Below are positions 31,779-44,813 of a stretch of DNA of 64,000 nucleotides, piece after piece (the first letter of the stretch is position 1; each line of letters begins with the position of its first letter). The stretch spans positions 1,760,001-1,824,000 of the forward strand of contig OZ242320.1 in NCBI GenBank assembly GCA_965208125.1, in the 5' to 3' direction. Source of the stretch: Candidatus Latescibacterota bacterium (lineage in GTDB: Bacteria; Latescibacterota; UBA2968). Both the position numbers and the translations under genes were made by a program. Below the pieces are notes generated by a model. That model saw only the letters and a list, made by a program, of their open reading frames with translations, ran no database searches and was not told where the DNA came from.

Positions 31779-32804
31779 ATGCCTGATATTGCGCGACGCG
31801 TACTCGTAACAGGTGCTGCGGGATTCATTGGCTTTCATCTCTCCAAACGACTGCTCGAAATGGGTCATTCGGTAGTCGGATTGGACAACGTGAACGACTA
31901 TTACAGTCCCCAACTCAAAGAAGACCGCCTATCCATCCTGAAGCGAGAAAGCGGATTCAAATTTGTCCGCATGCACCTCGAGGACGAAGCGGGAATAGCA
32001 AACCTCTTCCGCGCAGAGAACTTTTCTCATGTCATCAACCTCGCAGCTCAGGCGGGTATGCCTTACAGCCTGAAAAATCCCCAAGCCTTCGTCAAAAGCA
32101 ATGTCATGGGCTTCCTCAACATCCTGGAAGGATGTCGCCATTGCGGCATCGAACATCTGGTCTATGCATCCTCCAGTTCCGTTTATGGCTTGAACGCCAC
32201 CACGCCTCGTGGCGTCCGTCAAAGCGTCGATCATCCGATCAGCCTTTACGCAGCGACAAAAAAATCAGATGAACTAATGGCGCATGTGTATAGCCATCTA
32301 TACGGCATCCCGACCACAGGATTGCGCTTTTTCTCCGTGTATGGGCCCTGGGGACGTCCAGATTTTGTCGCCTATCTGTGGACCAGAGCCATCCTGGAAA
32401 ATCAACCAATCAAAGTCTATAATCACGGAAAAATACGCCGCAGTTTTACGTACGTCAGCGACATTGTCGAAGGCGTGACCCGCGTTTTGTCAAATCCCGC
32501 AAAGCCAGATCCCGAATGGACGGGACAATGCCCCGATCCGGGATCGAGTTCCAGCCCTTATCGGATCTACAATATCGGCAATCCGAATGTCATAGAACTG
32601 GAGTATTTCCTCTCGCTATTAGAGGACTTGCTGGGCAAAAAAGCCATCCGAAAAGATTTGCCCATGCAGCCCGGAGATGTACAGGATAATGCAGCAGATG
32701 TATCAGACCTGATGCGAGATGTGGGCTACAATCCCACAACGCCCATAGAAACAGGACTTGCAAATTTCGTCGCGTGGTATAAGGACTATCACAACGTAAA
32801 ATAA
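31779..32804 (+). CDS. NAD-dependent epimerase (UDP-glucuronate 4-epimerase type)
   Basis: TGAAGFIG, LAAQAG, ASSSSVYG, YAATK, RFFSVYGPWGRPD. Confidence 0.92.
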   Translation: MPDIARRVLVTGAAGFIGFHLSKRLLEMGHSVVGLDNVNDYYSPQLKEDRLSILKRESGFKFVRMHLEDEAGIANLFRAENFSHVINLAAQAGMPYSLKNPQAFVKSNVMGFLNILEGCRHCGIEHLVYASSSSVYGLNATTPRGVRQSVDHPISLYAATKKSDELMAHVYSHLYGIPTTGLRFFSVYGPWGRPDFVAYLWTRAILENQPIKVYNHGKIRRSFTYVSDIVEGVTRVLSNPAKPDPEWTGQCPDPGSSSSPYRIYNIGNPNVIELEYFLSLLEDLLGKKAIRKDLPMQPGDVQDNAADVSDLMRDVGYNPTTPIETGLANFVAWYKDYHNVK

Positions 32805-32827
32805 AGATGAGATAGGCGTTGAACAGG

Positions 32828-32970
32828 TGCATCCAACTGTATGCACTTGCGCCAGAAACTCGCAGGTGTAGCACAAATCATTCTCAAATTTTATCTCATT
32901 GTTTTTCAAGCACTTGAATAATTTCAAGTGCTTTTTTTTGTGCCAAAACGATTTTTGGCACGAATCTTGC
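32828..32970 (+). promoter_or_regulatory. Sigma54 promoter module, copy 1 (diverged)
   Basis: TGGCAC-GAATC-TTGC at 32956-32970. Palindrome AAGCACTTGAA-TAAT-TTCAAGTGCTT plus T-run. Upstream TGCAT-N8-ATGCA. Confidence 0.8.
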
Positions 32971-33168
32971 ACTAAATAGAATGAGACACTGGAAGTGGTT
33001 TCACGAAACCAGTGCCAAACACAATAAAGAAAGGAGATCCCCACACGTCACGGCGTTTCACAGCACTGCCATATATCCCACCTCAAAGATGAAAGGAGGC
33101 AACGCAACATCACGGGTTTTCATAGTTCTATTGTAGATCACACCTCAAAAATGTATAGGAGAATCGTC

Positions 33169-33498
33169 ATGAAAAAGCGAATCAGGACAAACAAAATGCG
33201 CTCTCACATCCTCATCCCGTTTCTCATGGTTGGAATGGGACTTGGAATTTGGATAAGCTGTTCCACAGACAATATGATCTCCAGCATAGACCAGACCTCA
33301 ACCGACGATGGCGTCTCCGGTCAAAGATCGGTTGGAACAAAGCCTGCTGTTGGGGGTTCAAATTATGCCGACTTTCACCCACAGACGAATGTCAATTACG
33401 ATCCTTTCGACTTTTCTTCCGAGAAAGGAGTCTCCCGTGACTATAAAATCTGTAGTATTCACATTGATTGCCTTCACCTTTTTTGCTTGCGGCGATAG
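33169..33498 (+). CDS. Putative lipoprotein, possibly truncated
   Basis: RBS AGGAG, basic N-terminus, hydrophobic stretch and WISC lipobox-like motif. Overlaps the next gene by 62 bp. Confidence 0.45.
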   Translation: MKKRIRTNKMRSHILIPFLMVGMGLGIWISCSTDNMISSIDQTSTDDGVSGQRSVGTKPAVGGSNYADFHPQTNVNYDPFDFSSEKGVSRDYKICSIHIDCLHLFCLRR

Positions 33499-33901
33499 CC
33501 CAACAAAGCCTCATTCTCCTGTCATTGTGCATACACTTGTGAGCGATTCTTACGACTCTGGCGGCAACATCTCTATCTATGATAGTCGCCTAAAAAAGAT
33601 ACACCACTACATGATCGAACTCGTCATAACACAAAAAGGTGAAGACCCACGAGAGAAAATTGGGCATACAATCGCTGATAGCATTATCCCGAGCCAACAA
33701 TTTTTTCAAGATATGGCTGAAGAATGGATGGACCAAAACGCCCTTGACTTTGTTGTTTCTATCACCGAAGGCTTCATTCGCATTGCCGACCCCAATAGGA
33801 CAATTTTAGCCTATGCAGAGGTTGTCAAAAATGCTTATGATGGTGACAACAAATCCGCTCATCTCGTTATCCATTTTGCTCCTACAGCCGGGGATCTTTA
33901 G
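33437..33901 (+). CDS. Hypothetical lipoprotein
   Basis: AAAGGAG followed by GTG. Signal VVFTLIAFTFFA-CGDSPT. Confidence 0.7.
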   Translation: MTIKSVVFTLIAFTFFACGDSPTKPHSPVIVHTLVSDSYDSGGNISIYDSRLKKIHHYMIELVITQKGEDPREKIGHTIADSIIPSQQFFQDMAEEWMDQNALDFVVSITEGFIRIADPNRTILAYAEVVKNAYDGDNKSAHLVIHFAPTAGDL

Positions 33902-33983
33902 GAGGTGGAGTTACCCCGCTTCGGTGGAGAGTTTAGGGCTTGTCAACCCATCGGCTCGACGACTCCCGGTAATCACGAAAATG

Positions 33984-34018
33984 AAAAAAGCGAGTCCTTT
34001 TAGGCTCGCTCTTTTTTT
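33984..34018 (+). terminator. Intrinsic terminator, paralogous to 44011-44050
   Basis: AGCGAGTC..GGCTCGCT-C-T7. Confidence 0.75.
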
Positions 34019-34299
34019 AAAATATATCGCTCAGGTCTTATCTGGTGGCTTCTCAAACACCTTTAATTCTGCATCCAGATTATAGATAGAGATGATGTTC
34101 CGATTCCGTCAACCTGGTCAACTTGTCGTAGTCTATGGCGGCAACATGATCAATCCTGAACTCCACCAGATCACGACTCAGGTGAAGTATGCCTTTTATT
34201 TTTATTTTTTCTTCCGCAAAATAAGCATATCATGTAATGCCTTACAATTCAAGACAAAATATAGCCATCCTGATGAGACCAGAATCTCGAGGTGGTACG

Positions 34300-35460
34300 A
34301 TGAACACTCAAAGCGAGCATAGAGACCAAACCCTCACAGCACTTGAAGAGGCGGCAAGCCATTACAAAGCGATCCTGGAAACCACCGTTGACGCGATTAT
34401 TACGATTGACAGTCAGGGGATTGTACAAACATTCAATTCTGCTGCCGAGAAGATATTCGGCTATCGCGCTGAGGAAGTGATCGGAAACAATGTCAAGATG
34501 CTGATGCCCGCGCCTTACCGCAGTGAACACGATAGCTATATTGGCAGATATTTAGAGACGGGCGTACCCAAAATTATCGGAACAGGACGTCAAGTGACTG
34601 GCCTGCGTAAAGATGGAACTGAATTTCCAATGGATCTGGCTGTCAGTGAGGTCCCCTTAAAAGACAAGCGATTATTTGCTGGCATTATCCGCGACATGAC
34701 AGAGCGCATACTGTTGGAGGAGCAATTGGTGCAATCAACCAAACTCGCAGCCGTGGGTAGATTGATTAGCGGGATTGCACATGAGGTGAACAACCCCGTG
34801 AGCATTATCAAACTCCATATCACCAGTGTGATGCAAAATATCGAAAGTCAAAAATTGCCAGAGGACCTGATTGAGACGCTGAAGGTCATTCAACGCCAGA
34901 ACAATAAGGTCGGGCAGATCATATCGGGACTACAGGCTTTTTCTCGGCAGGGATCTTTCAGCCCTGACTGGATCAATATCAACCAGACCGTGCATACTGC
35001 CTTGAGACTGGTTGAAAATACGCTGCAAAATCAGGACATTGTGTATCATGCTGAATTGGAAGACAGTTTGCCCAAAGTGTTGTTGGATCCCATACGCATT
35101 GAGCAGGTGTTGTTGAATCTGTTTAACAATGCGATTGAAGCGATGCCCGGTGGCGGTGTTTTGACCGTATCAACGACACTGGAGACAGACCAGACAGATG
35201 AAGATTGGGTGGTGGTCCGGATAAGAGATACAGGCACGGGCATTGAGGAAGAACATCTCAGCCATCTATTTGATCCTTTTTTTACAACCAAAGAAGTGGG
35301 TGAAGGAACCGGCCTGGGTCTTTCGGTCAGTTATGGTTTAATTCAAGAGCACAAAGGCCGAATTGAGGTGAGCAGTCAACCGGGCAAAGGCAGTGAGTTC
35401 CAGATTTATCTTCCCGTAACGGAGGAAGAAACATGGACAAAGAGAAAATCCTCGTCATAG
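34300..35460 (+). CDS. Cytoplasmic PAS histidine kinase with a FixL-like heme PAS domain
   Basis: LMPAPYRSEHDSYIGRY..IIGTGR.VTG.RKDG. H-box IAHEVNNP, N-box, DTGTG, FDPFFTTK, GTGLGL. Confidence 0.9.
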   Translation: MNTQSEHRDQTLTALEEAASHYKAILETTVDAIITIDSQGIVQTFNSAAEKIFGYRAEEVIGNNVKMLMPAPYRSEHDSYIGRYLETGVPKIIGTGRQVTGLRKDGTEFPMDLAVSEVPLKDKRLFAGIIRDMTERILLEEQLVQSTKLAAVGRLISGIAHEVNNPVSIIKLHITSVMQNIESQKLPEDLIETLKVIQRQNNKVGQIISGLQAFSRQGSFSPDWININQTVHTALRLVENTLQNQDIVYHAELEDSLPKVLLDPIRIEQVLLNLFNNAIEAMPGGGVLTVSTTLETDQTDEDWVVVRIRDTGTGIEEEHLSHLFDPFFTTKEVGEGTGLGLSVSYGLIQEHKGRIEVSSQPGKGSEFQIYLPVTEEETWTKRKSSS

Positions 35461-36788
35461 ATGACGAGCAGGATATGTTGCGCGGTTGCCAGAAGTTTCT
35501 GGAGACAGCGGGATACGCGGTTGTCGTAGCAGATTCGGGTAAGGCTGGAATCGCGTTGTTCGAGACTGAAAACCCCGATCTGGTCATAGTGGATTTGAAA
35601 ATGCCCGGAATGGACGGGATGGCTGTACTTGAAAGCATTATGGCACGCGATCAAGAGGCTATTGTGATCGTCTTTACCGGATATGGAACCATTGAGAGTG
35701 CAGTGAAAGCGATCAGAGCAGGCGCGTTCGACTTTGTTCGTAAACCATTTGATCCAGATACATTTTTAATCGTAATAGAACGGGCATTGAAACTGCGGCG
35801 CGTGAGGATAGAGAACAGTGCTCTCAAGCAAATGCTGGATACGCGATTCCGGTTTGAAAACATCATCGGGAACAGTGAAGCGATCACGCAGGTATTTGAT
35901 CTGATGCGGAAAATCAGTGACATAGATGCCAACGTCCTGATCACGGGGGAAAGTGGAACGGGAAAGGAACTGGTTGCCCAGTGTATTCATGCCAATAGCA
36001 AGCGCAGCCATAAGCCGTTTGTGCCGCTCAACTGTGGGGGCCTGCCAGAGCCTCTCATTGAAAGTGAGATATTTGGTCATACAAAGGGGGCATTCACAGA
36101 TGCGAAACAGAATCGCGTCGGGTTAATCGAACACGCGAAGGGCGGGACATTTTTTCTCGATGAAATCGGGGAATTGCCCATGCCCCTTCAGGTGAAATTC
36201 TTGCGGGTTTTGGAAGATCACAAAATTCGCAGGTTGGGAAGCAATCAGGAGATAGAAATCGACATCCGTCTCATCTCGGCGACCAATCAGAATATCGAGG
36301 CATTGATTGAAGCAGGTAAGTTTCGAGAAGATTTATTTTATCGACTTAACACCTTTGAGATTCACCTGCCACCTCTCAGGGAACGGCAGGGAGATATTCA
36401 ACTTCTTGTTCATCACTTTTTGAACGACTTTACCGAGACCTCTGAAAAAGTGGTTCAAGGAATTTCCACCGAGGCGATGGATGTATTGTGCGAATATACC
36501 TGGCCAGGCAATGTGCGAGAACTGATGCATGTGATAGAACGCGCTGTCGCACTGTCAGAAGAAGGTCGTGAAATTACGCCTGATTTGTTCCCAAAGCCTA
36601 TTGGGGGTAGCCTGGGGATAGAGACACAGACTAAAGGCCACTTAAAAGCGAGGGTCGCAGTGTTTGAAAAACAGATGATCCAGGATGTGCTCAAGAAACA
36701 CGCAGGCAATATCACGCAGACGGCTGAAGAATTGGGGCTGACCCGCGATGGTTTAATAAAAAAGATGGCGCGCCTGAAGATGCGTTAG
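35433..36788 (+). CDS. Sigma54-dependent response regulator (NtrC/AtoC family)
   Basis: Receiver DD..DLKMP..K, GESGTGKE, GAFTDA, FLDEIG, WPGNVREL, Fis-type HTH. Confidence 0.95.
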   Translation: MDKEKILVIDDEQDMLRGCQKFLETAGYAVVVADSGKAGIALFETENPDLVIVDLKMPGMDGMAVLESIMARDQEAIVIVFTGYGTIESAVKAIRAGAFDFVRKPFDPDTFLIVIERALKLRRVRIENSALKQMLDTRFRFENIIGNSEAITQVFDLMRKISDIDANVLITGESGTGKELVAQCIHANSKRSHKPFVPLNCGGLPEPLIESEIFGHTKGAFTDAKQNRVGLIEHAKGGTFFLDEIGELPMPLQVKFLRVLEDHKIRRLGSNQEIEIDIRLISATNQNIEALIEAGKFREDLFYRLNTFEIHLPPLRERQGDIQLLVHHFLNDFTETSEKVVQGISTEAMDVLCEYTWPGNVRELMHVIERAVALSEEGREITPDLFPKPIGGSLGIETQTKGHLKARVAVFEKQMIQDVLKKHAGNITQTAEELGLTRDGLIKKMARLKMR

Positions 36789-36802
36789 CAAATTGGACGT
36801 GA

Positions 36803-36987
36803 CCTTGTGAGGTGTATAATTTTTTCGTGGTTTCTTTTCAAATCGTATAAAAAATTATATACTTCGCAGAAAGCAACAACTTATAGCACCTGAAACATAA
36901 AAATTTTATCTTTTTGTTTTTCAAGCACTTGAGCATTTTCAAGTGCTTTTTTTTTGCGTTAGATAATTTATGGTACGCATCTTGCTT
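36803..36987 (+). promoter_or_regulatory. Sigma54 promoter module, copy 2
   Basis: TGGTAC-GCATC-TTGC at 36971-36985. Near-identical to 40284-40467, with a UAS-like CGTATAA-N4-TTATATA and an IHF-like TTTCAAGCACTTG. Confidence 0.85.
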
Positions 36988-37051
36988 CATATTTAGATAC
37001 AACAGTTTCCAATCAGTAAACGCTGTATCCTCAACCAAAGGAGAGTTGAAG

Positions 37052-38032
37052 ATGACTGAGAATAAATGGAAAACCGATGTGTGCAACCCTGTGTATTGTT
37101 CAATCGGCTTGCTTTTCATTCTGTGTCTGTTCTCTGTGCCATTGGCATGGGGGGATTATCAGGATGGTAGGGAGGCATATAACCGAAAGGACTACACAAT
37201 AGCACTGGAGGCATTGCGATCTCTCGCCGAGCAAGGCCATGCTGGCGCGCAGTATGTCATCGGCTATATGTATTACAAAGGTCAAGGCGCGAAGAAAAAT
37301 GGTGCGGAGGCTGTGAAATGGCTCCGCAAGGCTGCCGATCAAGGAAATGTCAAAGCGCAATTACGCCTTGGCATGATGTTTCGCATGGGGTCGGGCGTGT
37401 CGAAAAACTATGCGGAGGCGCAGATGTGGCTTCGCAAAGCGACCGAGCAAGGGGATGGCAAAGCAGGGTACAATCTCGGTTTGATGTATTACAGAGGCGA
37501 AGGGGTGGATAAAGATGAAGAAGAGGGGTTAAAGTGGTTTCGCAAGGCTGCCGAAGCAGGCTATGTCAATGCTCAACTCGCGCTTGGTGGCATGTATTTG
37601 AAAGGCCAGAGTGTTGCCAAAGACAATGCAGAAGCCGTGAAATGGTTTCGCAAGGCCGCTGAGCAAGGCCATGCCATGTCTCAGTTTGCTCTTGCCGACA
37701 TGTATTCCAGAGGTAAGGTCGTTGCAAAAAACTATACAAAAGCCGTGAAGTGGCTTTGCAAGGCCGCCGCAGGTGGAAATGCTCATGCCCAATTCGCCCT
37801 GGGCAGATTCTATGTTACGGGTGTAGCTGAGCTCGGCGTGTCGAAAGATATCGTGGAGGCGCACAAATGGTTGAGCCTATCTGCGGCACAGGACCATGAG
37901 AAGGCACGCGAAAAACGCGATGAGATTGCCCAACTGATGACCCCTGAGCAACTTGCCGAAGCCGAGCGCCGGGCGCACGAATGGAAATGGAAGCAAATTG
38001 AGAAAGTGCAAAGTAGGCAGGCTGGAAGATAG
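37052..38032 (+). CDS. Secreted Sel1-like repeat protein
   Basis: Signal peptide and about 6 AQxxLGxMYxxGxGVxKDxxEAVKWFRKAAEQG repeats. RBS AAAGGAG. Confidence 0.92.
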   Translation: MTENKWKTDVCNPVYCSIGLLFILCLFSVPLAWGDYQDGREAYNRKDYTIALEALRSLAEQGHAGAQYVIGYMYYKGQGAKKNGAEAVKWLRKAADQGNVKAQLRLGMMFRMGSGVSKNYAEAQMWLRKATEQGDGKAGYNLGLMYYRGEGVDKDEEEGLKWFRKAAEAGYVNAQLALGGMYLKGQSVAKDNAEAVKWFRKAAEQGHAMSQFALADMYSRGKVVAKNYTKAVKWLCKAAAGGNAHAQFALGRFYVTGVAELGVSKDIVEAHKWLSLSAAQDHEKAREKRDEIAQLMTPEQLAEAERRAHEWKWKQIEKVQSRQAGR

Positions 38033-38054
38033 GCTGTGGACTTGACCCGTTTCG

Positions 38055-38183
38055 GATGCTGTTGCCGAATTTCGAATCTGTCTCGATGCAACTAAACATA
38101 AGGCTTACAGAGCCTGCATTCAGGCCACAAATAGCCTTTTTTGTAATCGCAGACTCCCTCCCCACCAATTCGGCAACAGCATC
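38055..38183. mobile_element. MITE copy 1 (129 bp, 17-bp terminal inverted repeats)
   Basis: GATGCTGTTGCCGAATT...AATTCGGCAACAGCATC. A second copy is at 40704. Confidence 0.85.
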
Positions 38184-38318
38184 TAAAGCGGGATAACTCC
38201 AGTGGTTGTCGGTTGTAAAAAGCTGTGTGATTTCGGTATCTTGTGAGAGTGATATGGGCAGATCAAGCGGTGTACAAACCTGCGCTCTAATTGGCGTTAA
38301 ATGGGACTGCGATTCAAT

Positions 38319-39107
38319 ATGTTTTTAAATCAAAAAAAACTGGTGAGAATACTGATTATTTTGTATTTGCTACTTGGGGGAATGGATGCTGTAGCAGAAC
38401 AAAAGAAGAAAGAAGATGCAAAAGAAAAAAACAAGGAATGGATTGGAGTCCTGGGAGGTCTGTCGCAATTTTACTTAAAAGATGAATTGGGTTCCTACTT
38501 GCGATTCGGAGGTCAGACGCAATCCATCGCTTTGACTGGACTAACCGAAAAACTCAAAAGCTACCAGTGGGGGTCTGGTGCATTCGGTACTGGCAAACTC
38601 CAGGCGCCTTTTGCAAGTGTTGATCTAATGTATATGCAGATTGAATTTTTTTACGGTCGCTATTTGGCATCCTATTTCGAGAAAAAAATGAGGGTGAGCA
38701 TAATGGGAGGCGGAACAGTGGAAATATATCGCAAAAAGTATGCCTATCCGCGTCTTAGTGAGCAGGTTTCAGATATGATTTTGAGTCTGAATTTTGCGGT
38801 GGCGGGTGACTATCGTCTCAATGCAAGACACCATCTCAAAGCATATATGGGTAGCAATATCGCGTCGTACAATAATATCTATCACGTACCGGGAACCAGT
38901 CTTTTGCTCAGCAAGTACCGTTTCGCATTGTGGAACCGCTTTTTGCACGTCAATATGGGTGTTCAATACGAAAACCAACTGTTATCATCCATGCGGCTTT
39001 ATGTACTTTATCGCATGGATTTTCGACGCTTGCAAAGGCGTGATCGTATGTCCTCAGCGTTCACGCATAATCTGTTGATCGGTTTTGCTTACAAGTACAA
39101 AGGCTAA
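38319..39107 (+). CDS. Hypothetical exported protein, probably an outer-membrane beta-barrel; start uncertain
   Basis: Signal-like N-terminus, alternating aromatic strands and C-terminal IGFAYKY. Closely coupled to the S41 peptidase gene. Confidence 0.6.
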   Translation: MFLNQKKLVRILIILYLLLGGMDAVAEQKKKEDAKEKNKEWIGVLGGLSQFYLKDELGSYLRFGGQTQSIALTGLTEKLKSYQWGSGAFGTGKLQAPFASVDLMYMQIEFFYGRYLASYFEKKMRVSIMGGGTVEIYRKKYAYPRLSEQVSDMILSLNFAVAGDYRLNARHHLKAYMGSNIASYNNIYHVPGTSLLLSKYRFALWNRFLHVNMGVQYENQLLSSMRLYVLYRMDFRRLQRRDRMSSAFTHNLLIGFAYKYKG

Positions 39108-39112
39108 TAGAT

Positions 39113-40183
39113 ATGAAACGGTGCGTACACATACTATGGGTCGTTGTCATCGGTGTTCTTACTTTTTCCTGTGGAAAATCCATCATAGGTGGAGACCAAG
39201 ATCTATCTCCCGAACACAACTTTGAAATTCTGTGGCAGGAATTTAACGATTTTTACGCACTATTTGAGACCAAGAATGTCGATTGGGACGGGATTTACAG
39301 GTTTCTTCGCCCCAATATCACACCTCAATCTACTCCACAGGAACTATTTGAAATCTGTGCTCTCATGTTGGAATATCTCAATGACCGGCATGTCGCTCTC
39401 GTTACGCCATTTAGTGGTTTTTTATCAGGGCGCAGTGATGAGCCTTTAACTTTTGATCCGAGCATAGTCGGAAGAGATACGACAATTGTGCTTGGCGGTA
39501 GAAGAGACGAGTCTTTCGATTTTGACCGCGTCAGAAATTATGTTGGAAATATGCACAGTCAGAGCAGTCTTCAGTATGGTATTATCCAGAATCATATTGG
39601 GTATCTTTTTATTCCTGGATTCTCAGGGTCTGTTAAAGACTGGGAACGCGATATTGACGCTGTATTAGAGCAGTTGAGGAATACGTCTGGCATAATTATT
39701 GATCTGAGACAGAACTCGGGGGGCTTGCGGAAGTTGTCTAAAGTTATAATGTCCCGATTTATTGAGACAACACAGGTATATGGCTATGAAGAATTTCGCA
39801 ATGGCCCCAATCGATCTGATTTTACATCTCCTCGTGAACTGAAAATAGAACCTGCGGGCACACGGCAGTATATCAATCCCATTGTTTTGCTTGTTGGAAG
39901 AAATACCGGGAGTGCGGCTGAAAAAATTGTTTTGGCTCTTAGAGAACGCCCACATGTCACGGTTGTTGGCAGCCCGACCGCAGGTGCGCTTGGAGCCACT
40001 AAGCGAGGCCAATTGCCCAATGGGTGGACTTACCAACTCACGATTTCTAAGTTTGTTTCTGGGGATGGGATAAGCTATGAAGGTATCGGTATTCCACCCG
40101 ATATTGCGGTCAGCTTTTCCGATGCCTCCCCGACGGACGACCCCGTGCTTGAGGCGGGTATTGAGGTTTTGGCAGGAACGTAA
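39113..40183 (+). CDS. S41-family peptidase lipoprotein
   Basis: Lipobox LTFSC, LNDRH, IIIDLRQNSGG, TGSAAE, EGIGIPPD. Confidence 0.9.
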   Translation: MKRCVHILWVVVIGVLTFSCGKSIIGGDQDLSPEHNFEILWQEFNDFYALFETKNVDWDGIYRFLRPNITPQSTPQELFEICALMLEYLNDRHVALVTPFSGFLSGRSDEPLTFDPSIVGRDTTIVLGGRRDESFDFDRVRNYVGNMHSQSSLQYGIIQNHIGYLFIPGFSGSVKDWERDIDAVLEQLRNTSGIIIDLRQNSGGLRKLSKVIMSRFIETTQVYGYEEFRNGPNRSDFTSPRELKIEPAGTRQYINPIVLLVGRNTGSAAEKIVLALRERPHVTVVGSPTAGALGATKRGQLPNGWTYQLTISKFVSGDGISYEGIGIPPDIAVSFSDASPTDDPVLEAGIEVLAGT

Positions 40184-40283
40184 GAGAGGGCATAGATCAT
40201 GTTTATCAGATATCTTGGGCTAATGTCATAGACATTTTGCAATCTTTTACCTCACAACTTGAGTTAAACTATAGTACTGGAGT

Positions 40284-40467
40284 CCTTGTGAGGTGTATAA
40301 TTTTTTCGTAGTTTCTTTTTTAATCGTATAAAAAATTATACACTTCGCAGAAAGCGACAACTTATAGCACTTAAAATATAAAAATTTTATCTTTTTGTTT
40401 TTCAAGCACTTGAGCATTTTCAAGTGCTTTTTTTTATTTTGAAAAATTTATGGCACGCATCTTGCTT
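40284..40467 (+). promoter_or_regulatory. Sigma54 promoter module, copy 3
   Basis: TGGCAC-GCATC-TTGC at 40451-40465. Perfect 14-bp inverted repeat GTGTATAATTTTTT/AAAAAATTATACAC. Same hairpin plus T-run. Confidence 0.85.
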
Positions 40468-40517
40468 TATAGAATGTGCAAGAAAATAACAACAATTAGA
40501 TTTTACTAAGGTGACTT

Positions 40518-40688
40518 ATGAATGTTCAGACACAGATAACAATACGCGATTATTTGGCTCATCTCGCCTTACTCTATGCTATCTGGGGCGATAAAGTTCG
40601 ATCCGAAGCCTTGCGCACGATGATGAGTAGAATAAACAGAGATAGAGCAGCGACCAGTACAATCACAGGCTTGAAAAACAAGCCCTAA
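40518..40688 (+). CDS. Small ORF (56 aa), not in the ORF track
   Basis: TAAGGTGA RBS, then MNVQTQITIRDYLAHLALLYAIWGDKVRSEALRTMMSRINRDRAATSTITGLKNKP*, directly after the sigma54 promoter. Confidence 0.5.
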   Translation: MNVQTQITIRDYLAHLALLYAIWGDKVRSEALRTMMSRINRDRAATSTITGLKNKP

Positions 40689-40703
40689 ACTCTCCGCCAA
40701 AGC

Positions 40704-40831
40704 GATGCTGTTGCCGAATTCCGAATCTGTGTTGATGCAACTAAACGGGCTTACAGAGCCTGCATTCAGGCCACAAATAGCCGTTTTTCTAATCGCAGAC
40801 TCCTCCCTCCCCACAATTCGGCAACAGCATC
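40704..40831. mobile_element. MITE copy 2 (128 bp)
   Basis: Same TIRs as 38055-38183 and a highly similar core. Confidence 0.85.
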
Positions 40832-40983
40832 TAAATAACTCCAGTGGATGCTCTCAGATACGAGTGAATGGCCCTGCTTGCGTACGTGATCCATAGAAAT
40901 TTCAGAAGCGAGTGCGTCTTTGTTACAGCGCCGTTATGCTCTGGAAATGGTTACTATATGTCTTAAACAGAGAGGTGAGACAT

Positions 40984-41883
40984 ATGTATAAAATTTCAGA
41001 CTTCAAAATTCCGGATCGGCTTAACCTGGACACAGACTGGAGCATTGGTGAGACAGCATTTGAGAGAATCGCAACCACGCTTCTTCAGATGTCCCCAGTA
41101 GAAAAAATTCTCGAATTTGGGAGTGGTCCGAGTTCTATCCGTCTGGCGATGGCGTTTTCTGAAACTCAAGTTCTGTCTGTGGAAGGCGACTGGCGGAATT
41201 ATGCAGAGACCATGAATCTGATGCAAACATTCTGGAATAAACGCAATCTATCGATCAAATATCGTCCAATTACACCTGAATCTTATGGAGACGCGGAATT
41301 TTTGACTTATAAAGATGGGATGTTTTGGGATGACCAAAAAGAGATAGATTGCGTGATTATTGATGGTCCGCCTGTCTATACCTTGCGAGGTCGAGAGGCG
41401 TGTCTCTACCAGATTTATGATCAGATCAAGACTGGTGGTCTGGTCGTCCTGGACGATTTCAGAAGGCCTTATGAGAAGCAAATTGTCGAGAACTGGCTAT
41501 CCGTCTATCCCGGTAGTTTTACAGTGGAAATGATCCGCGAAGACCACCATCTGGCCGTGCTGCGTAAGGTCAGATCCACGACACCGTGTTGGGATGCGCC
41601 TTATAGGCTTTCTGATGTTCAGTCTGTCAGTAAAATGCTCGCCCGCATTACACAGGCATTATCGCAGGTTGATGATGTGTACTTGAGAGTGCTGGCCAAA
41701 GCGAATAACTGCTATGAGACAGATCTGATTGACCTATTCAACATCCTTCGCAACATCTATGGGGTAACACCTGAGCATATCCACAAGTTCGCGGATCGAA
41801 ATGCTACACTCCCACCAGACGCGAAAAAAAGAAAACAGAATGCCTGTTATATGACAATTTTCAATGCGTTTTTTCGGAACTGA
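40984..41883 (+). CDS. Class I SAM-dependent methyltransferase (Methyltransf_24-like)
   Basis: ILEFGSG, SVEGD, VIIDGP, GGLVVLDD. RBS GAGGTG. Confidence 0.8.
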   Translation: MYKISDFKIPDRLNLDTDWSIGETAFERIATTLLQMSPVEKILEFGSGPSSIRLAMAFSETQVLSVEGDWRNYAETMNLMQTFWNKRNLSIKYRPITPESYGDAEFLTYKDGMFWDDQKEIDCVIIDGPPVYTLRGREACLYQIYDQIKTGGLVVLDDFRRPYEKQIVENWLSVYPGSFTVEMIREDHHLAVLRKVRSTTPCWDAPYRLSDVQSVSKMLARITQALSQVDDVYLRVLAKANNCYETDLIDLFNILRNIYGVTPEHIHKFADRNATLPPDAKKRKQNACYMTIFNAFFRN

Positions 41884-41900
41884 ATGTACAGGGGGGAGAT

Positions 41901-42548
41901 ATGAGATACTTTATGGGTATTCTGATATTTGCGGTCCTGTCCTATCCCGCCTCGATTCTTGGGCAATCGACACTCTCTTTTAGGGAGGGCCTGAATCTGG
42001 CAACCCTGAGCGGAGAGATAATGGATAGGCATCCAGTGAATGCACGCGCCACCCTCAAGCTGGGTGTTTCCGGGACTTTTCCAGTACGGGGCAGATTTGG
42101 CTTTCAACTCAATGGTGACTATGTGCAAAAGGGTGCTCATGACTTCTTATACGATTTCATCATAGAAGTTGACTATATTGAGTTTTCTGGGCTGGTCAAT
42201 ATCACACTTATCTCCCCCTATCATGCACCTTCTTTATTTATACTCGCAGGGCCATCAGTAGCATTCAAAGTTAGGAGCGAGGGCGAACAGTTAGCGAGAA
42301 GACACTGGAGAGATCGCTTCGAGTTCAAGACCACAGACTTTGGTATCATTGTAGGACTTGGCACGCAAATGACATTTTCTGAAGCGATGATAATCAAAGC
42401 AGAATTTCTATACACCGAGGGCATTCGATCTATCAACAAAACCGCTCTCTATGATCCTAACTTCAATGCAGAAACCAGTATCAAAAACCGAGCGCTCTCC
42501 GCCTGTGTCGGCCTCGGTTTTCCTTATGGGCGAAGAACGGGAGGTTAA
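41901..42548 (+). CDS. Outer-membrane beta-barrel (porin-family) protein
   Basis: Signal peptide, GLNLA, YVQKG, DYIE, AGPS, DFGIIVG, KNR..S..LG. Confidence 0.75.
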   Translation: MRYFMGILIFAVLSYPASILGQSTLSFREGLNLATLSGEIMDRHPVNARATLKLGVSGTFPVRGRFGFQLNGDYVQKGAHDFLYDFIIEVDYIEFSGLVNITLISPYHAPSLFILAGPSVAFKVRSEGEQLARRHWRDRFEFKTTDFGIIVGLGTQMTFSEAMIIKAEFLYTEGIRSINKTALYDPNFNAETSIKNRALSACVGLGFPYGRRTGG

Positions 42549-42549
42549 A

Positions 42550-43947
42550 ATGAAATCTGCCATGGCAACATATATTCGCAGGATCCTCGTGGTAGCACTG
42601 GCTACTGGTGTGATGGAAAGCCCTATATGGGGGCAGGAGATTGAGACGGCTGTGACCTCATTTGTGATAGGCGGCGTGACACTTCAGGAAGATGTGAAGA
42701 ACCCACCTGTGCCGAGTGGCATGCAGAGATTTGAAATCACAATGAATAAACCAGTCGTAACTTTTAACGAATTGAGGGAACCTGAAACTTTGCCCTATTT
42801 CGATGGCGACAGCATTGCTATAGCAACTATCACTAAGTACTTTGATATTGACCGAGATTTTATTTCCTATCCTCCTGATCTGATGGTAGAGGTTCTAACT
42901 GCTCCTGACCTATCAGCCAGTGCGGATGGCTTTACATTAACAGGGACTATCAATTTGCCTGACAGTATGAGCTACCAGGTCCTTATTGGTGAGTCGGATT
43001 CAGACCCTATTGATGAACAGCAGCAATATTTCTTTGGGACTTCAGAACTGCCAGATGCTGTTATTTCCGGTATAGGCACCTTACCTGATGGTTTTACAGT
43101 CAACACGCGGTCACACCCAGGCGGAGCCATAATTATTGACCCTGAACGATTTGTGACGGCTTTCCCATACTACCAAGAATGGGATGATCTAATCATATTA
43201 TCTATGGTTCGCATTGCCGATTTCAATGAACAACAGATATTTGAGATAAAACATGTCCCTGATGGCGCTTATGCTATGATAATGGGAGCGGATCTGCTCG
43301 ATTCAGTGGGAAATAGGTTTCAGTCACTTACTCCCAGAGGAATCAATCTTACGACAGGTGAGGTCGATTCTACCGAATTTGTTCATGTCATTGGTGGCAA
43401 AAGTGTAACAGATTTACAAATGATGTTACAGATAGTACCGCGGGATCCAGAGCCACAGATTTCTGAAATTCTGGAGGTCAAGGTTCAAAGCGTCAATGCT
43501 GAAACAAAATCGTTTGTCATTCAACCTGGCAACCAACAGATACAGATAGATGCTTCAGAGGCCCTGGCAGTTTCCCCAGGCCAAATAAGTGCTGAGGAGA
43601 TCCTCAAGATCTTTTTGTTTCATAATCCTGATGATTTCGCACGAATCATTTTTCCTATTACCGACCTGATGGTAGGAGATACCGTTTCTCTCCTGGGAAC
43701 ATACACTTCTGAAACGATGTTCCAGGCCTTTATAGTAATCCGCCATGAATCGCCTCTGGCACGGAATGGAGATATAGATGGGGACGGAGATGTCGATTTC
43801 TCTGATTTTCTACTTTTTACTTCTGCCTTTGGCACAATTGAAGGGGAACCAGAATACAATCCCGCGGCAGATTTGGACGGGGATGGTGCGGTCGTATTCT
43901 CAGACTTTCTGATATTTGCCAGTGCCTTCGGCAAACCCGTGGGTTAG
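42550..43947 (+). CDS. Secreted acidic protein with a C-terminal dockerin/EF-hand-like Ca-binding pair
   Basis: Signal peptide. GDIDGDGDVDFSDFLLFTSAFG and ADLDGDGAVVFSDFLIFASAFG. Confidence 0.8.
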   Translation: MKSAMATYIRRILVVALATGVMESPIWGQEIETAVTSFVIGGVTLQEDVKNPPVPSGMQRFEITMNKPVVTFNELREPETLPYFDGDSIAIATITKYFDIDRDFISYPPDLMVEVLTAPDLSASADGFTLTGTINLPDSMSYQVLIGESDSDPIDEQQQYFFGTSELPDAVISGIGTLPDGFTVNTRSHPGGAIIIDPERFVTAFPYYQEWDDLIILSMVRIADFNEQQIFEIKHVPDGAYAMIMGADLLDSVGNRFQSLTPRGINLTTGEVDSTEFVHVIGGKSVTDLQMMLQIVPRDPEPQISEILEVKVQSVNAETKSFVIQPGNQQIQIDASEALAVSPGQISAEEILKIFLFHNPDDFARIIFPITDLMVGDTVSLLGTYTSETMFQAFIVIRHESPLARNGDIDGDGDVDFSDFLLFTSAFGTIEGEPEYNPAADLDGDGAVVFSDFLIFASAFGKPVG

Positions 43948-44010
43948 AAGTACGGTATGACACAATAAACAGCCCAAGGACTGACCCCCAGGAATGTTTT
44001 CCATTTCTCT

Positions 44011-44050
44011 AAAATGAAAAGAGTGAGTTCTTTTTGGCTCGCTCTTTTTT
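44011..44050 (+). terminator. Intrinsic terminator, paralogous to 33984-34018
   Basis: AAAAGAGTGAGT..GCTCGCTCTTTTTT. Confidence 0.7.
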
Positions 44051-44163: not shown

Positions 44164-44403
44164 ATGAATACTTATCGCAGGCGTCTTGTAGTCCAAGACC
44201 CCAAACAGATTGTGCTTTCTGATGTTCCTTTTCAAACAGGTCAAGAAGTAGAAATTACCCTGCGTTCAATAGAGCAGCCTACAGTAGAGCGGAAGAATGA
44301 GTTACGCGCCCTGTTAAAGAAGACGCAATCACTTCCCCAAATTCAAACCCTCACAGAAGAGGATATTCTTGCTGAAATTGAAGCCTATCGGAAAGGCCAA
44401 TGA
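44164..44403 (+). CDS. Putative antitoxin
   Basis: 79 aa with VPFQTGQEVEI and LTEEDILAEIEAYR. ATGA overlap with the PIN gene. Confidence 0.7.
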   Translation: MNTYRRRLVVQDPKQIVLSDVPFQTGQEVEITLRSIEQPTVERKNELRALLKKTQSLPQIQTLTEEDILAEIEAYRKGQ

Positions 44404-44813
44404 TAGTAGTCATTGATACAAGCGTTCTGGTCTCGGCTGCATTTCGTGACCGCACACCCGAAGAAGTGATTCTGTTTGTTACCGGGCAAGACGCCTTTCA
44501 TTGGATTGTTTCTGATGAAATTTTAGCTGAATATCGAGAGGTTTTAAGTCGCCCTAAATTTGATCTGTCAGAAGAAATTTTGAATCAATGGATAGAAATG
44601 CTGGAATTATCCACAATCGAAATAGATGTTGACTTAGAAATTGATTTTCCAAGAGATCGCAAAGACGCCAAATTCATCGCCTGTGCCCTTGCTGCACAAG
44701 CGAATTTTTTTATTACTGGAGATCATGATTTCAGCGAGGCACAGCAGATGATGAATACAACAATTATATCCGTGTCGCTTTTTAAAAGGACTGTGTGTGA
44801 TAACTGGATATAA
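44400..44813 (+). CDS. PIN-domain toxin (PIN_3 type)
   Basis: VVIDTSVLVSA, EY.EVL.RPKF, RDRKDAKF, ITGDHD. Confidence 0.88.
   Translation: MIVVIDTSVLVSAAFRDRTPEEVILFVTGQDAFHWIVSDEILAEYREVLSRPKFDLSEEILNQWIEMLELSTIEIDVDLEIDFPRDRKDAKFIACALAAQANFFITGDHDFSEAQQMMNTTIISVSLFKRTVCDNWI

Follow-up and report, generated by a model that had tools for sequence, protein, structure and literature searches.

The NtrY/NtrX system of Brucella consists of a heme-PAS kinase with an NtrC-family regulator; NtrY is membrane-bound, and its domain order differs from that of the kinase described here. Integron cassettes and promoter-bearing MITEs such as Correia elements are short repeated units that bring varied cargo under a common expression signal. 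In E. coli, the sigma-54 promoter of atoDAEB lies 3' of the two-component genes, and upstream of its start is an inverted palindrome to which the activator binds (PMC3118216). To that extent, the locus studied here is like AtoS/AtoC-atoDAEB, as its two-component genes are followed by a sigma-54 promoter with a palindromic activator site.

The locus lies in a stretch of 64,000 nucleotides (the window) of a Latescibacterota genome, called G000 here; G001 to G020 are 20 other genomes of the genus. The host bacterium is sponge-associated. A short module occurs three times in the window, and the whole is best explained, in our opinion quite probably, by a genus-wide family of self-contained sigma-54 promoter modules with a regulator-specific UAS and a built-in terminator. 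One compact promoter unit is re-used before different exported-protein genes. The features are as follows.

31779..32804, + strand: NAD-dependent epimerase/dehydratase gene, conserved left flank (Pfam PF01370, E 1.2e-52; synteny)
32822..32975, + strand: module copy 1, UAS class B (repeat search, terminator and folding analysis, motif count)
33169..33498, + strand: small lipoprotein 1 with leader (ORF, lipobox-like ...GIWISCS)
33437..33901, + strand: small lipoprotein 2, likely GTG start, lipobox-like ...FTFFACG; separate mosaic piece
33906..33943, + strand: solo terminal repeat of an insertion sequence (TGGAGTTACCCCGCTT...GGGCTTG), at least 15 genome copies (local blastn)
33989..34017, + strand: terminator-like hairpin with T-run closing the lipoprotein block, also upstream of the kinase gene in G015
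34237..35460, + strand: FixL-type sensor histidine kinase (heme-PAS, HisKA, HATPase), cytoplasmic (Pfam; PDB matches to FixL heme domains)
35433..36788, + strand: NtrC-type response regulator EBP (REC, AAA+ sigma-54 interaction domain, Fis-type HTH ...LGLTRDGLIKKMARLKMR; Pfam, sequence)
36803..36991, + strand: module copy 2, UAS class A, directly 3' of the EBP gene; ancestral position
37052..38032, + strand: Sel1-repeat protein, first gene of the block unique to this genome at the locus (Pfam PF08238, E 7e-58)
38037..38201, no strand: MITE, about 165 nt long; its terminal inverted repeats of 35 nt match an IS3-like element end; genome copies
38301..39107, + strand: exported protein, possible outer-membrane barrel (signal peptide, C-terminal aromatic motif)
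39113..40183, + strand: S41 peptidase of the tail-specific protease type; the inserted block ends with this gene (Pfam PF03572, E 2e-30)
40284..40471, + strand: module copy 3, UAS class A, duplicate; its 3' junction is the ancestral one
40518..40688, + strand: small conserved ORF, family c11, 3' end overlapped by an IS-end remnant
40660..40835, no strand: IS-end remnant (40660-40703, minus) joined to a 5'-truncated MITE copy (40704-40835)
40984..41883, + strand: methyltransferase-like protein (weak Pfam PF13578 match)
41901..42548, + strand: outer-membrane beta-barrel protein, cargo conserved in relatives (Pfam OMP_b-brl_2; synteny)
42451..43947, + strand: dockerin-domain protein, conserved cargo, true start probably after 42548 (Pfam PF00404; synteny)
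44006..44050, + strand: terminator-like hairpin closing the third block, paralogue of the first-block hairpin

The repeat search and direct reading delimited three copies of one 150-190 nt module (32822-32975, 36803-36991 and 40284-40471), and in each of them a UAS palindrome, an AT tract and a T-run hairpin precede, in that order, TGGYAC-N5-TTGC. In copy 1, the UAS is TGCATCC-AACT-GTATGCA (32828-32845), AAATTTTATC, which is found in every copy, lies at 32886-32895, the hairpin occupies 32908-32933 with its T-run to 32939, and the -24/-12 element TGGCACGAATCTTGC at 32956-32970 gives a predicted start near 32982. Copies 2 and 3 have the palindrome CGTATAA-AAAA-TTATAYA and the distal half-site TGTATAATTTTTT. 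The half-site, palindrome and hairpin are at 36813-36825, 36844-36861 and 36923-36948 in copy 2 and at 40294-40306, 40325-40342 and 40404-40429 in copy 3, and the promoters TGGTACGCATCTTGC (36971-36985) and TGGCACGCATCTTGC (40451-40465) have predicted starts near 36997 and 40477. The hairpin reads AAGCACTTGA-N6-TCAAGTGCTT and then T8-9 in all three copies, and the -24/-12 element, starting at 32956, 36971 and 40451, is TGGCAC or TGGTAC-N5-TTGC. Copies 2 and 3 are 95% identical over 152 nt (36803-36954 and 40284-40435); copy 1 shares with them a 71-nt core (32869-32939) at 79-82% and the promoter stretch. The window contains the -24/-12 pattern three times against 0.26 expected, a number reached in none of 100 shuffles, and the hairpin pattern three times against 0.00 expected. 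The threefold unit of UAS, AT tract, T-run hairpin and TGGYAC-N5-TTGC described by a sequence-only reading of this DNA was thus borne out, far above chance.

That reading treated the module as a feature of an island and proposed a genome-wide BLASTN-type survey. We ran it and found seven copies in this genome, none weaker, and the module in 20 of the 20 other genomes of the genus searched, which makes it a genus-wide family instead. No module was found in four genomes of other genera of the family, and one of 16 genomes of the next family gave a 48-nt partial match. Full cores numbered 82 from 21 genomes. The UAS lies at -125 to -129 from TGGCAC in 69 modules, and the T-run is 7-9 long in 67 of the 72 scored. 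In 52 of the 82, a same-strand EBP gene (one an internally deleted remnant) ends 90-255 nt upstream, and 13 of 25 EBP genes of G000 have a -24/-12 motif within 330 nt downstream. The one rpoN and about 25 EBP genes of the genome, with the constant UAS offset, argue for the sigma-54 enhancer architecture proposed earlier. The usual unit would run from an EBP gene through an enhancer site in its 3' untranslated region, a terminator and a sigma-54 promoter to the target genes; each module would comprise a palindromic enhancer about 119 bp upstream of the -24 element, an AT-rich tract, an 11-bp hairpin with a U-run, and the -24/-12 promoter.

The kinase gene has an upstream region of its own that is conserved (34181-34239); no sigma-54 motif was found at the gene, the window holding just three -24/-12 motifs. 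Its PAS domain gives a gap-free match of 118 aa to the heme domain of B. japonicum FixL (E 2.8e-35) and keeps the heme-pocket residues, namely the His of RSxHDSY and the Arg positions mutated in 2CMN (R206A) and 1Y28 (R220A), so that the FixL-type assignment of the earlier reading very probably stands. Its best NCBIfam match is FixL (276 against a cut-off of 850) and its second best AtoS, below the equivalog cut-off of 646. The EBP gene overlaps the kinase gene by 28 nt. Pfam agreed with the expected sigma-54 activator beside the kinase, of NtrC type; its best NCBIfam match is AtoC (469 bits, below the equivalog cut-off of 714), and NtrX gave 380 bits (cut-off 600). The resident EBP has GAFTDA instead of the canonical GAFTGA, and GAFTDA was found in 13 of 13 RR-type EBPs. 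A FixL-like kinase is here unusually paired with a sigma-54 activator: in a sample seeded with peptides of this kinase, an EBP AAA+ domain lay within 4 kb of the FixL-like gene at none of 74 loci of other phyla vs all six Latescibacterota loci. We infer from homology alone that the locus responds to O2 and that low O2 activates the kinase, as it does rhizobial FixL. At low O2, the cytoplasmic heme-PAS kinase would phosphorylate the NtrC-type EBP, which would bind TGTATAA-N4-TTATACA and activate copy 2 (Sel1 protein, exported protein, S41 protease), copy 3 (small ORF, methyltransferase-like protein, OMP, dockerin protein) and a fourth promoter before two exported TPR proteins (G000:2912741).

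Across the modules, the UAS half-site and the recognition helix of the adjoining EBP vary together. The helix TRAGLQ (Ser/Thr-kinase EBPs) goes with TGC half-sites in 17 of 17 cases, TRVGLH with TGTA half-sites in 12 of 12, LTRDGLI, the type of the resident EBP, with class A (TGTATAA-N4-TTATACA) at 7 of 7 loci, and MNRHRLQ with class C in 3 of 3; the kinase locus of G011 combines a class C DNA-binding end with a class C site. For three of these helix types, G000 has exactly one EBP each. Class A modules occur in nine genomes, seven of which (G000 and six others) have a full-length EBP at 90% or more; just the 3' end of this EBP was found in G012, and in G013, where a class A module is present, a search for the class A EBP found none. 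By the helix/site rule, copies 2 and 3 and the fourth copy, 1.1 Mb away, are predicted to belong to the resident FixL-type kinase and NtrC-type regulator. Copy 1 (TGCATCC-N4-GTATGCA), which heads the lipoproteins, is predicted to be controlled by an EBP fused to a Ser/Thr kinase, whose gene lies 1.3 Mb away (G000:494533-499443). As the half-site changes in step with the EBP helix, a module copied elsewhere without its EBP would stay in that EBP's regulon. The associated features are neighbours that are inherited together, and the independent lineages behind the association number perhaps 6-8, so that much of it could come from shared descent.

In G002, G003, G008, G012, G015 and G020, one class A module heads varying combinations of the small ORF, methyltransferase, OMP and dockerin genes, in five of the six directly after the EBP gene; the EBP of G012 is internally deleted. 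The contig of G007 ends at the class A module. Neither the Sel1 block nor the lipoprotein block was found at this locus in the relatives compared, and by the junction sequences, copy 2 has the ancestral edge on its upstream side and copy 3 on its downstream side. The Sel1-barrel-S41 block with the duplicate module, and the lipoprotein block, are therefore read as insertions seen here alone, with IS and MITE scars nearby. The extra copies would have arisen recently in the lineage of this genome, and the Sel1 block would have arrived with the duplicate module, as recombination within the module would give. This comparison of cassette content, also proposed earlier, and the promoter swap at the lipoprotein gene support the idea of promoter duplication and cassette swapping.

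On the left, the epimerase gene of G002 and G011 has a terminator of its own, after which comes the kinase gene. In three relatives, at four loci in all (G015, G019 with two, and G001), lipoprotein 1 is preceded by a different sigma-54-like promoter; these DNA matches cover query 50-432 only, and since the homology ends near 33407, its 3' end is probably fused to the next piece. Lipoprotein 2 has a single DNA match, in G003 (query 437-930, 88%). The block would be a mosaic that came to lie downstream of a peptide-operon promoter copy. The hairpins closing the first and third blocks (33973-34017 and 44006-44050) are 87% identical and fold at -14.4 and -16.6 kcal/mol, which confirms the paralogous terminators noted earlier.

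Regarding the cargo, the Sel1, S41, OMP beta-barrel and dockerin identities named in the sequence-only reading were recovered by Pfam, the methyltransferase weakly, and the 'barrel' at 38301-39107 is left with no Pfam or NCBIfam match. The Atlas neighbours of the latter are hypothetical proteins, and its single-sequence fold has a pLDDT of 39; with its signal peptide and C-terminal ...GFAYKYKG, the name stays plausible. Elsewhere in G020, a class A module precedes a Sel1 gene of 59% identity. An open frame, presumably IS3-type, comes after the end of a full IS copy (G000:4811870-4811916). The c11 ORFs lie about 50 nt after modules following RR-type EBPs and also within the kinase-fused-EBP peptide locus of G006, and paralogues of the methyltransferase-like protein (81% and 78%) are found in the peptide/radical-SAM loci G000:2467318 and 504761. 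One RNA-library contig joins 40637 to 40868 without the IS/MITE stretch between; these contigs are from relatives and cannot show transcript ends.

The sequence-only reading had placed all three promoters under the resident FixL-type system as one O2-responsive regulon, the UAS of copy 1 being a diverged enhancer. All three copies do cluster around the kinase and EBP genes, in a span of 7.6 kb. Every UAS class fits TGYAT-N8-ATRCA at a common offset, so the resident EBP could cross-recognize them, and the related DNA-binding ends of three module-associated EBPs of G000 (...GNITxTAxELGxTRxGLxKKxxRLxxR) make overlapping specificity conceivable. However, copy 1 carries the UAS class of TRAGLQ EBPs; its 18-mer recurs unchanged beside the Ser/Thr-kinase EBP (G000:499703), where the complete module (G000:499556-499705) shares 89% identity with copy 1, whereas none of the seven LTRDGLI EBPs is followed by TGCATCC. 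The absence of the lipoprotein block from the locus in the relatives compared also indicates a recent position, and we regard a single regulon as improbable. The hairpin is most likely an intrinsic terminator, predicted to halt transcription from the upstream gene. Module hairpins fold at -13.5 to -14.8 kcal/mol (z -3.2 to -5.1), were picked as terminator-like, and have 95.8% of alignment cells paired, although just 4 of the 11 stem pairs are G-C. Stem transitions in 77 rows gave G.U 29 times vs A.C 3 times, or 18 vs 3 as distinct events, with a share of 0.64 predicted from flanking columns (p 6e-4 and 0.025); for the distinct events, the excess is modest after correction for a background bias. 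These substitution patterns favour a sense-strand RNA hairpin and hence the terminator. The element could instead be a DNA-level site between enhancer and promoter, bent by IHF/HU or bound by another palindrome binder, with the T-run as part of a bent AT-rich tract; we consider this rather unlikely. The hairpin centre falls about 60 nt ahead of the predicted start, in the usual position of IHF sites at sigma-54 promoters, TTTCAAGCACTTG is one specified position off the IHF consensus, WATCAANNNNTTR, and the genome has four HU/IHF-family genes. The loop varies, whereas the arm sequences are kept in 74 of 82 copies; a DNA-binding protein could account for such conservation as well, and two-sided covariation is at shuffle level (two pairs changed on both sides; 145 of 500 shuffles reach that). 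Yet a DNA site gives no reason for one-strand tolerance of G.U and avoidance of A.C, IHF would need one arm only, the element scores as a canonical terminator, and 52 of 82 hairpins stand at the end of a co-oriented EBP gene. The terminator and IHF roles are mutually compatible.

The 1-7 copies per genome among the extracted cores, the abrupt identity edges of copies 2 and 3, and the IS ends and MITEs in the region would suit a small MITE-like element that transposes and carries a promoter by chance. On reading the sequence, however, neither terminal inverted repeats nor target duplications flank the copies; copy number is low, positions are orthologous across species, 52 of 82 copies hold an equal place relative to the EBP gene, and every copy faces downstream genes, so we give such an element very little credence. 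It is equally hard to believe that the module - Sel1 block - module tandem is an assembly artefact in which two loci were joined at the repeat. The tandem is seen in this one assembly only, and the best DNA runs contain only half of the sampled words of the stretch; but the repeat is about 190 nt, its two copies differ at 5% of positions, and the genome is a single 5.75-Mb contig with unique sequence at each junction.

Unlike AtoS, the sensor has a cytoplasmic FixL-type heme-PAS domain, and unlike atoDAEB, the promoter unit recurs with exchange of its enhancer sites and includes a U-run hairpin; the cargo of atoDAEB is fatty-acid catabolism, whereas here it is exported proteins. As in rhizobial FixL, with which it aligns gap-free over 118 aa, a heme-PAS domain with the proximal His and the Arg206/Arg220 positions precedes HisKA and HATPase, but the partner is an NtrC-type sigma-54 activator and not a FixJ-type regulator. 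A heme-PAS sensor kinase wired to an NtrC-family regulator is also the arrangement of Brucella NtrY/NtrX; we know of no relation between the promoters of that system and the module. In contrast to integron cassettes and Correia elements, the module lacks an integrase and an attC site, and it has neither inverted ends nor target duplications. Its spread looks like duplication and homologous recombination, each copy being tied to one activator through its enhancer site.

The three promoter modules described in the sequence-only reading proved to be real. A repeat search of the window showed 95% identity over 152 nt between 36803–36954 and 40284–40435, and a 71-nt core together with the promoter stretch was common to all three copies, with a core identity of 79–82%. 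Reading of the sequence gave the same element order in copies 1–3, namely a palindrome, AAATTTTATC, the hairpin AAGCACTTGA-N6-TCAAGTGCTT with T8–9 and, about 20 nt after the hairpin and T-run, TGGCAC/TGGTAC-N5-TTGC. The −24/−12 pattern occurred in the 64-kb window only at these three places (0.26 expected), and the hairpin pattern occurred three times (0.00 expected). The modules and their surroundings are as follows.

32822–32975, module copy 1
33169–33498 and 33437–33901, small lipoproteins lipo1 and lipo2
33906–33943, solo end of a second IS, distinct from that of the MITE below, directly 3' of the lipo2 stop codon (TGGAGTTACCCCGCTT... ends, at least 15 copies genome-wide)
34237–35460, kinase gene
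35433–36788, resident sigma-54 activator (EBP) gene
36803–36991, module copy 2
37052–38032, Sel1 gene
38037–38201, MITE (about 165 nt) whose 35-nt inverted ends exactly match the terminus of a full IS copy at G000:4811870–4811916
38301–39107, exported 'barrel' protein gene
39113–40183, S41 protease gene
40284–40471, module copy 3
40518–40688, small ORF
40660–40703, minus strand, the IS end of 33906–33943, inverted, overlapping the small ORF 3' end
40704–40835, truncated copy of the MITE
40984–41883, methyltransferase-like gene
41901–42548, OMP gene
42451–43947, dockerin gene

The sigma-54 enhancer architecture claimed earlier was also borne out. The spacing of the GG and GC elements in TGGCAC-N5-TTGC is present in all three copies, the palindrome lies at −125 to −129, and the genome holding the window (G000) has one Sigma54_DBD match (rpoN) and about 25 Sigma54_activat matches of 217–248 bits, which are EBPs. 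These data support the module as a sigma-54 enhancer-dependent promoter with a predicted activator site and start. Rfam at gathering thresholds gave no match and ARAGORN no tRNA in the window, so the repeats are not known RNA genes. The module was also considered as a MITE or other mobile element, which is unlikely, as neither terminal inverted repeats nor a target-site duplication was found flanking copies 2 and 3 or the remaining copies in the genome. Pfam agreed with the cargo names for the Sel1, S41, OMP and dockerin proteins and gave a weak methyltransferase match, but the 'barrel' was left without a family. This protein has a signal peptide and an aromatic C-terminus; its single-sequence AlphaFold model was of low confidence (pLDDT 39), and its Atlas neighbours are all hypothetical.

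The module is a genus-wide family and no local feature. A genome-wide BLAST, suggested in the sequence-only reading, and an nhmmer profile found exactly seven copies in the 5.75-Mb G000 (next-best match E 0.5), of which four, near G000:499687, 2465457, 974555 and 2912757, lie beyond the window; the cargo was catalogued for the family. All 20 other genomes searched in the genus had the core, as against none of four genomes from other genera of the family; the 16 genomes of the next family gave one 48-nt partial match to it. After the loci were fetched, 82 full cores were extracted from 21 genomes, and in the 81 that were aligned the GG of −24, the TTG of −12 and the TTAT of the AT tract were invariant. 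In 69 modules the enhancer palindrome lay 125–129 nt ahead of TGGCAC; T-runs of 7–9 were seen in 67 of the 72 scored. A same-strand EBP gene, in one case an internally deleted remnant, ended 90–255 nt upstream of the module in 52 of the 82. As 13 of the 25 EBP genes of G000 have a −24/−12 motif within 330 nt downstream, an EBP gene followed by its putative target promoter is a customary arrangement here.

Comparison of the kinase locus among relatives bears out the idea of promoter duplication and cassette swapping, through synteny, module edges and insertions found only in G000. Kinase orthologues occur in 11 of the 20 other genomes, and in six of the kinase-bearing genomes an EBP of class A, the type with TGTATAA-N4-TTATACA sites, is at least 90% identical. 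One class A module is found at the kinase locus of G002, G003, G008, G012, G015 and G020, with varying combinations of the small ORF, methyltransferase-like gene, OMP and dockerin protein as cargo; it follows the EBP in all but G012, where the EBP is internally deleted. Both the Sel1-barrel-S41 block and the lipoprotein block are absent from this locus in these six genomes. The G007 contig ends at the module of the kinase locus. The edges that match the relatives' single module lie upstream of copy 2 and downstream of copy 3. It suggests that the Sel1 block entered with a duplicate module, the expected product of recombination within the module. At another locus of G020, a class A module preceded by a kinase-gene fragment heads a 59% identical Sel1 gene. 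In G016 and G010 a module with cargo separates the kinase gene from the EBP gene, a further case of rearrangement at modules.

The lipoprotein block is a mosaic in the variable spacer between the epimerase and kinase genes, and this spacer is an apparent hot spot for insertions and deletions. G015, G019 (two loci) and G001 also have the lipo1 gene and its leader, the homology beginning about 50 nt after the predicted start, and there the gene has another sigma-54-like promoter, TGGCACATATTTCGC, with another enhancer type and no hairpin; lipo2 alone is found in G003. This second conserved promoter type carries upstream repeats of GTGCGACAGGAATGTCC (loci L223, L224, L226 and L225), and its upstream flank (GGTTGGTCAACGGA...) is common to the class C modules, whose sites go with EBPs of the MNRHRLQ helix type. 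In G007 an intact reverse-strand gene separates the epimerase and kinase genes; its 3' end is 91% identical to a 136-nt remnant at 34049–34184. At the right edge of the module region, a small ORF and a PIN-domain protein (44164–44813, 4-nt overlap) are likely a toxin-antitoxin pair; copies of the small ORF flank the G020 kinase locus on either side. The open frame of the full IS copy is presumably of IS3 type. The repeat at 38037–38201, considered as an integron-like attC site, turned out to be a MITE with IS ends, and it has 5–6 copies in G000, two of them inside the module region. One RNA-library contig from a relative lacks the inverted IS end and the truncated MITE, with 40637 joined to 40868.

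Which regulator acts on which copy can be predicted from the recognition helix of the EBP and the half-site beside it. EBPs with the helix ...TRAGLQKK... had TGCATCC-type half-sites in 17/17 loci and those with ...TRVGLHKK... had TGTA(T/A) half-sites in 12/12, the window regulator and its orthologues (...LTRDGLIKKM...) had YGTATAA-AAAA-TTATAYA in 7/7, and ...MNRHRLQRL... went with a different, longer palindrome in 3/3. The two half-sites change symmetrically. Moreover, the EBP at the G011 kinase locus is 78% identical over residues 1–444 and has the MNRHRLQRL helix type, and the adjoining module has the matching site. The link is thus supported by this symmetry, the G011 exchange and perhaps 6–8 independent lineages, although part of it is shared descent, because helix and site are neighbours and inherited together. 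For three helix types, G000 has exactly one EBP each. The helix/site rule would assign copies 2 and 3 to the resident regulator, and likewise the copy at G000:2912741, which heads two exported TPR proteins. The 18-mer of copy 1 is identical to the site beside a 1,636-residue Ser/Thr-kinase-fused EBP (G000:494533–499443), and the whole module is 89% identical to the module there, which argues that copy 1 belongs to that EBP. The proposal that the resident two-component system controls all three copies is therefore not supported for copy 1. The window EBP was also considered as the closest paralogue of the kinase-fused EBPs; it is 42–46% identical to many EBPs, with none singled out, and its distinctive part is the DNA-binding end only.

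The hairpin may be read as an intrinsic terminator or as a binding site for IHF or HU. All three window hairpins came out as terminator-like in a consensus scan; they have 11 pairs, a loop of 4 and T8–9, at −13.5 to −14.8 kcal/mol, with only 4 G-C pairs. Across modules, the arms are strongly conserved and the loop is variable, so that ordinary covariation is uninformative here (95.8% of cells paired, 2 pairs changed on both sides, not above shuffles). The direction of change in the stem was more telling. In 77 rows, transitions giving G.U on the sense strand (C>T, A>G) numbered 29 against 3 giving A.C (G>A, T>C). The per-site C>T rate was equal in stem and flanks, and T>C was seen 0 times at 5 stem sites vs 73 times at 33 flank sites. 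The G.U share exceeded the flank background (expected 0.64) with p 6e-4 on copies and p 0.025 on 18 vs 3 distinct events. The same DNA contains TTTCAAGCACTTG, one mismatch from what we take to be the IHF consensus, WATCAANNNNTTR with an upstream AT tract, and the genome has four HU/IHF-family genes; the match does not tell IHF from HU. This DNA may also serve as an IHF or HU site, but the G.U bias, the U-run and the location behind a co-oriented gene favour an intrinsic terminator as a part of the module. Without an activator, sigma-54 promoters are silent, and such a terminator would stop transcription from upstream ahead of a promoter meant to stay silent. The three window hairpins would act in this way on the epimerase gene, the EBP operon and the S41 operon, respectively.

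The kinase was identified earlier as FixL-type, and this stands for its sensor domain. Residues 41–160 match the FixL heme domains of B. japonicum (1DP6, E 2.8e-35) and S. meliloti (E 1.5e-33) in the PDB, and that of E. coli DosP more weakly. The alignment is gap-free; the Arg of IGRY and the Arg of GTGRQ lie at the positions of FixL Arg206 and Arg220, which are marked by the mutant entries 2CMN and 1Y28. The His of RSEHDSY aligns with the FixL proximal His (His200 by the same numbering), which we take to be the heme ligand. The score for NCBIfam sens_FixL_Rhizob was 275.9 bits vs a cut-off of 850. The kinase (PAS-HisKA-HATPase by Pfam) is thus FixL-like in its predicted sensor domain and no FixL equivalog. 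Rhizobial FixL senses O2 and is active at low O2, and by analogy we infer the same for this kinase.

The gene overlapping it downstream encodes an NtrC-type EBP (REC-AAA+-HTH_8), and no FixJ-type (LuxR HTH) partner. PF00072 receiver, PF00158 AAA+ and PF02954 Fis-type HTH domains were all above the Pfam cut-off. The phospho-acceptor context is DLKMPGMDG, Walker A is GESGTGKE, and GAFTDA replaces GAFTGA in the sigma-54 contact loop. All 13 RR-type EBPs examined in the genus have GAFTDA, in contrast to kinase-fused EBPs from these genomes, which show GAFTGA apart from one GSFTGA and one GAFSEA. Among 80 FixL-like loci fetched from GTDB genomes, a sample seeded with the window kinase's own peptides, an EBP AAA+ domain lay within 4 kb of the FixL-like gene in 6/6 Latescibacterota loci vs 0/74 from other phyla. 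The literature listings for FixL with an enhancer-binding protein, sigma-54 or an NtrC-type regulator gave no such system.

Across the family, the commonest cargo is a precursor peptide together with a radical-SAM/SPASM enzyme. Such an enzyme is headed by 37 of the 82 modules, which come from most of the genus's genomes, and 35 of these 37 modules sit behind a kinase-fused EBP. The best NCBIfam matches of the enzyme are SCIFF, QhpD and PapB-type thioether maturases, all below the cut-off, and a conserved peptide of about 60 aa (MATRRKLTLINGTID...C...PLPFPDDDDWDDFDQ) usually precedes it. Two such loci in G000, at G000:494533–501408 (L026:4533–11408) and G000:2461938–2467161 (L027:3938–9161), share one layout. 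A Ser/Thr-kinase-AAA-TPR-GAF-EBP fusion (1,636 and 1,093 aa) comes first, followed by the module, then by a precursor-like peptide of 60 aa that contains one or two Cys and ends in an acidic tail, and last by the radical-SAM/SPASM enzyme. They probably represent an undescribed modified-peptide family under sigma-54 control. The window methyltransferase-like gene has 81% and 78% paralogues in two peptide/radical-SAM loci. Other cargo includes FN3/Ig giant proteins, type IX sorting-tail proteins, FGE-sulfatase-like enzymes, MacB/ABC transporters and TPR proteins. A small ORF family with no family match (M.VQ..I.KR..LA.L.LLYAIWGD.VRSEALR.MM.R...; window 40518–40688, L060:6306–6509 and relatives) lies about 50 nt after modules behind RR-type EBPs in at least 6 genomes; in G006 it lies inside a kinase-fused-EBP peptide locus. 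There are more than 50 scattered dockerin-domain matches in G000 and many EBPs of about 1,070 aa, the two examined being kinase-fused; these counts suggest a large sigma-54-controlled surface and secretion repertoire.

RNA contigs from four metatranscriptome runs (sponge and coral), placed at ≥88% likeness, covered the epimerase, kinase, EBP and methyltransferase-OMP-dockerin genes; the lipoprotein and Sel1 blocks had almost no cover, and such holes prove nothing, because the contigs come from relatives. The contig in which 40637 is joined to 40868 has an end at 40490, some 13 nt downstream of the start predicted for copy 3, which is a weak hint at best. DNA runs with parts of the stretch include several labelled sponge metagenome.

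Taken together, we consider it possible, though rather doubtful, that the module is a portable insulated promoter and a landing pad for exported-protein cassettes, with the helix and half-site splitting regulons and anoxia driving surface remodelling. A terminator and a sigma-54 promoter would be fused to an exchangeable enhancer address; new cassettes would be recruited to the sensor's regulon through homologous recombination within modules, with no need of an integrase; helix changes (Ala/Val, Gln/His) with the half-site change TGC/TGT would split regulons; and a FixL-type kinase on sigma-54 would let a sponge symbiont remodel its surface when the host tissue is anoxic. 

A unit that blocks read-through and has its own enhancer address is an insulated part of the kind that synthetic biology builds by hand, and here it appears to have evolved and spread naturally, reaching some 80 copies across 21 genomes. 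A recognition code that links a Fis-type helix to a DNA half-site can be tested directly in this family, which is also a rare case where regulon growth by promoter copying and cargo exchange is readable from synteny. In a sponge symbiont, a FixL-type sensor coupled to sigma-54 would make exported Sel1, protease, porin and dockerin proteins answer to the oxygen level of the tissue, and the commonest cargo points to undescribed modified peptides under sigma-54 and Ser/Thr-kinase control.

The literature listings on Latescibacteria sigma-54 and on terminators upstream of sigma-54 promoters gave nothing on such a system. The feature is real and orderly, a variant of enhancer-dependent promoters and FixL signalling in which binding, termination, starts and the O2 response are predicted. 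For atoDAEB, a sigma-54 promoter with a palindromic activator site is described after the two-component genes (PMC3118216), and the window layout is like this AtoSC-atoDAEB arrangement. The sensor domain of the window kinase is like FixL. Unlike both systems, however, the window has a heme-PAS kinase predicted to be wired to sigma-54, a built-in hairpin with a U-run, and one promoter chassis that is reused with exchanged enhancer addresses.
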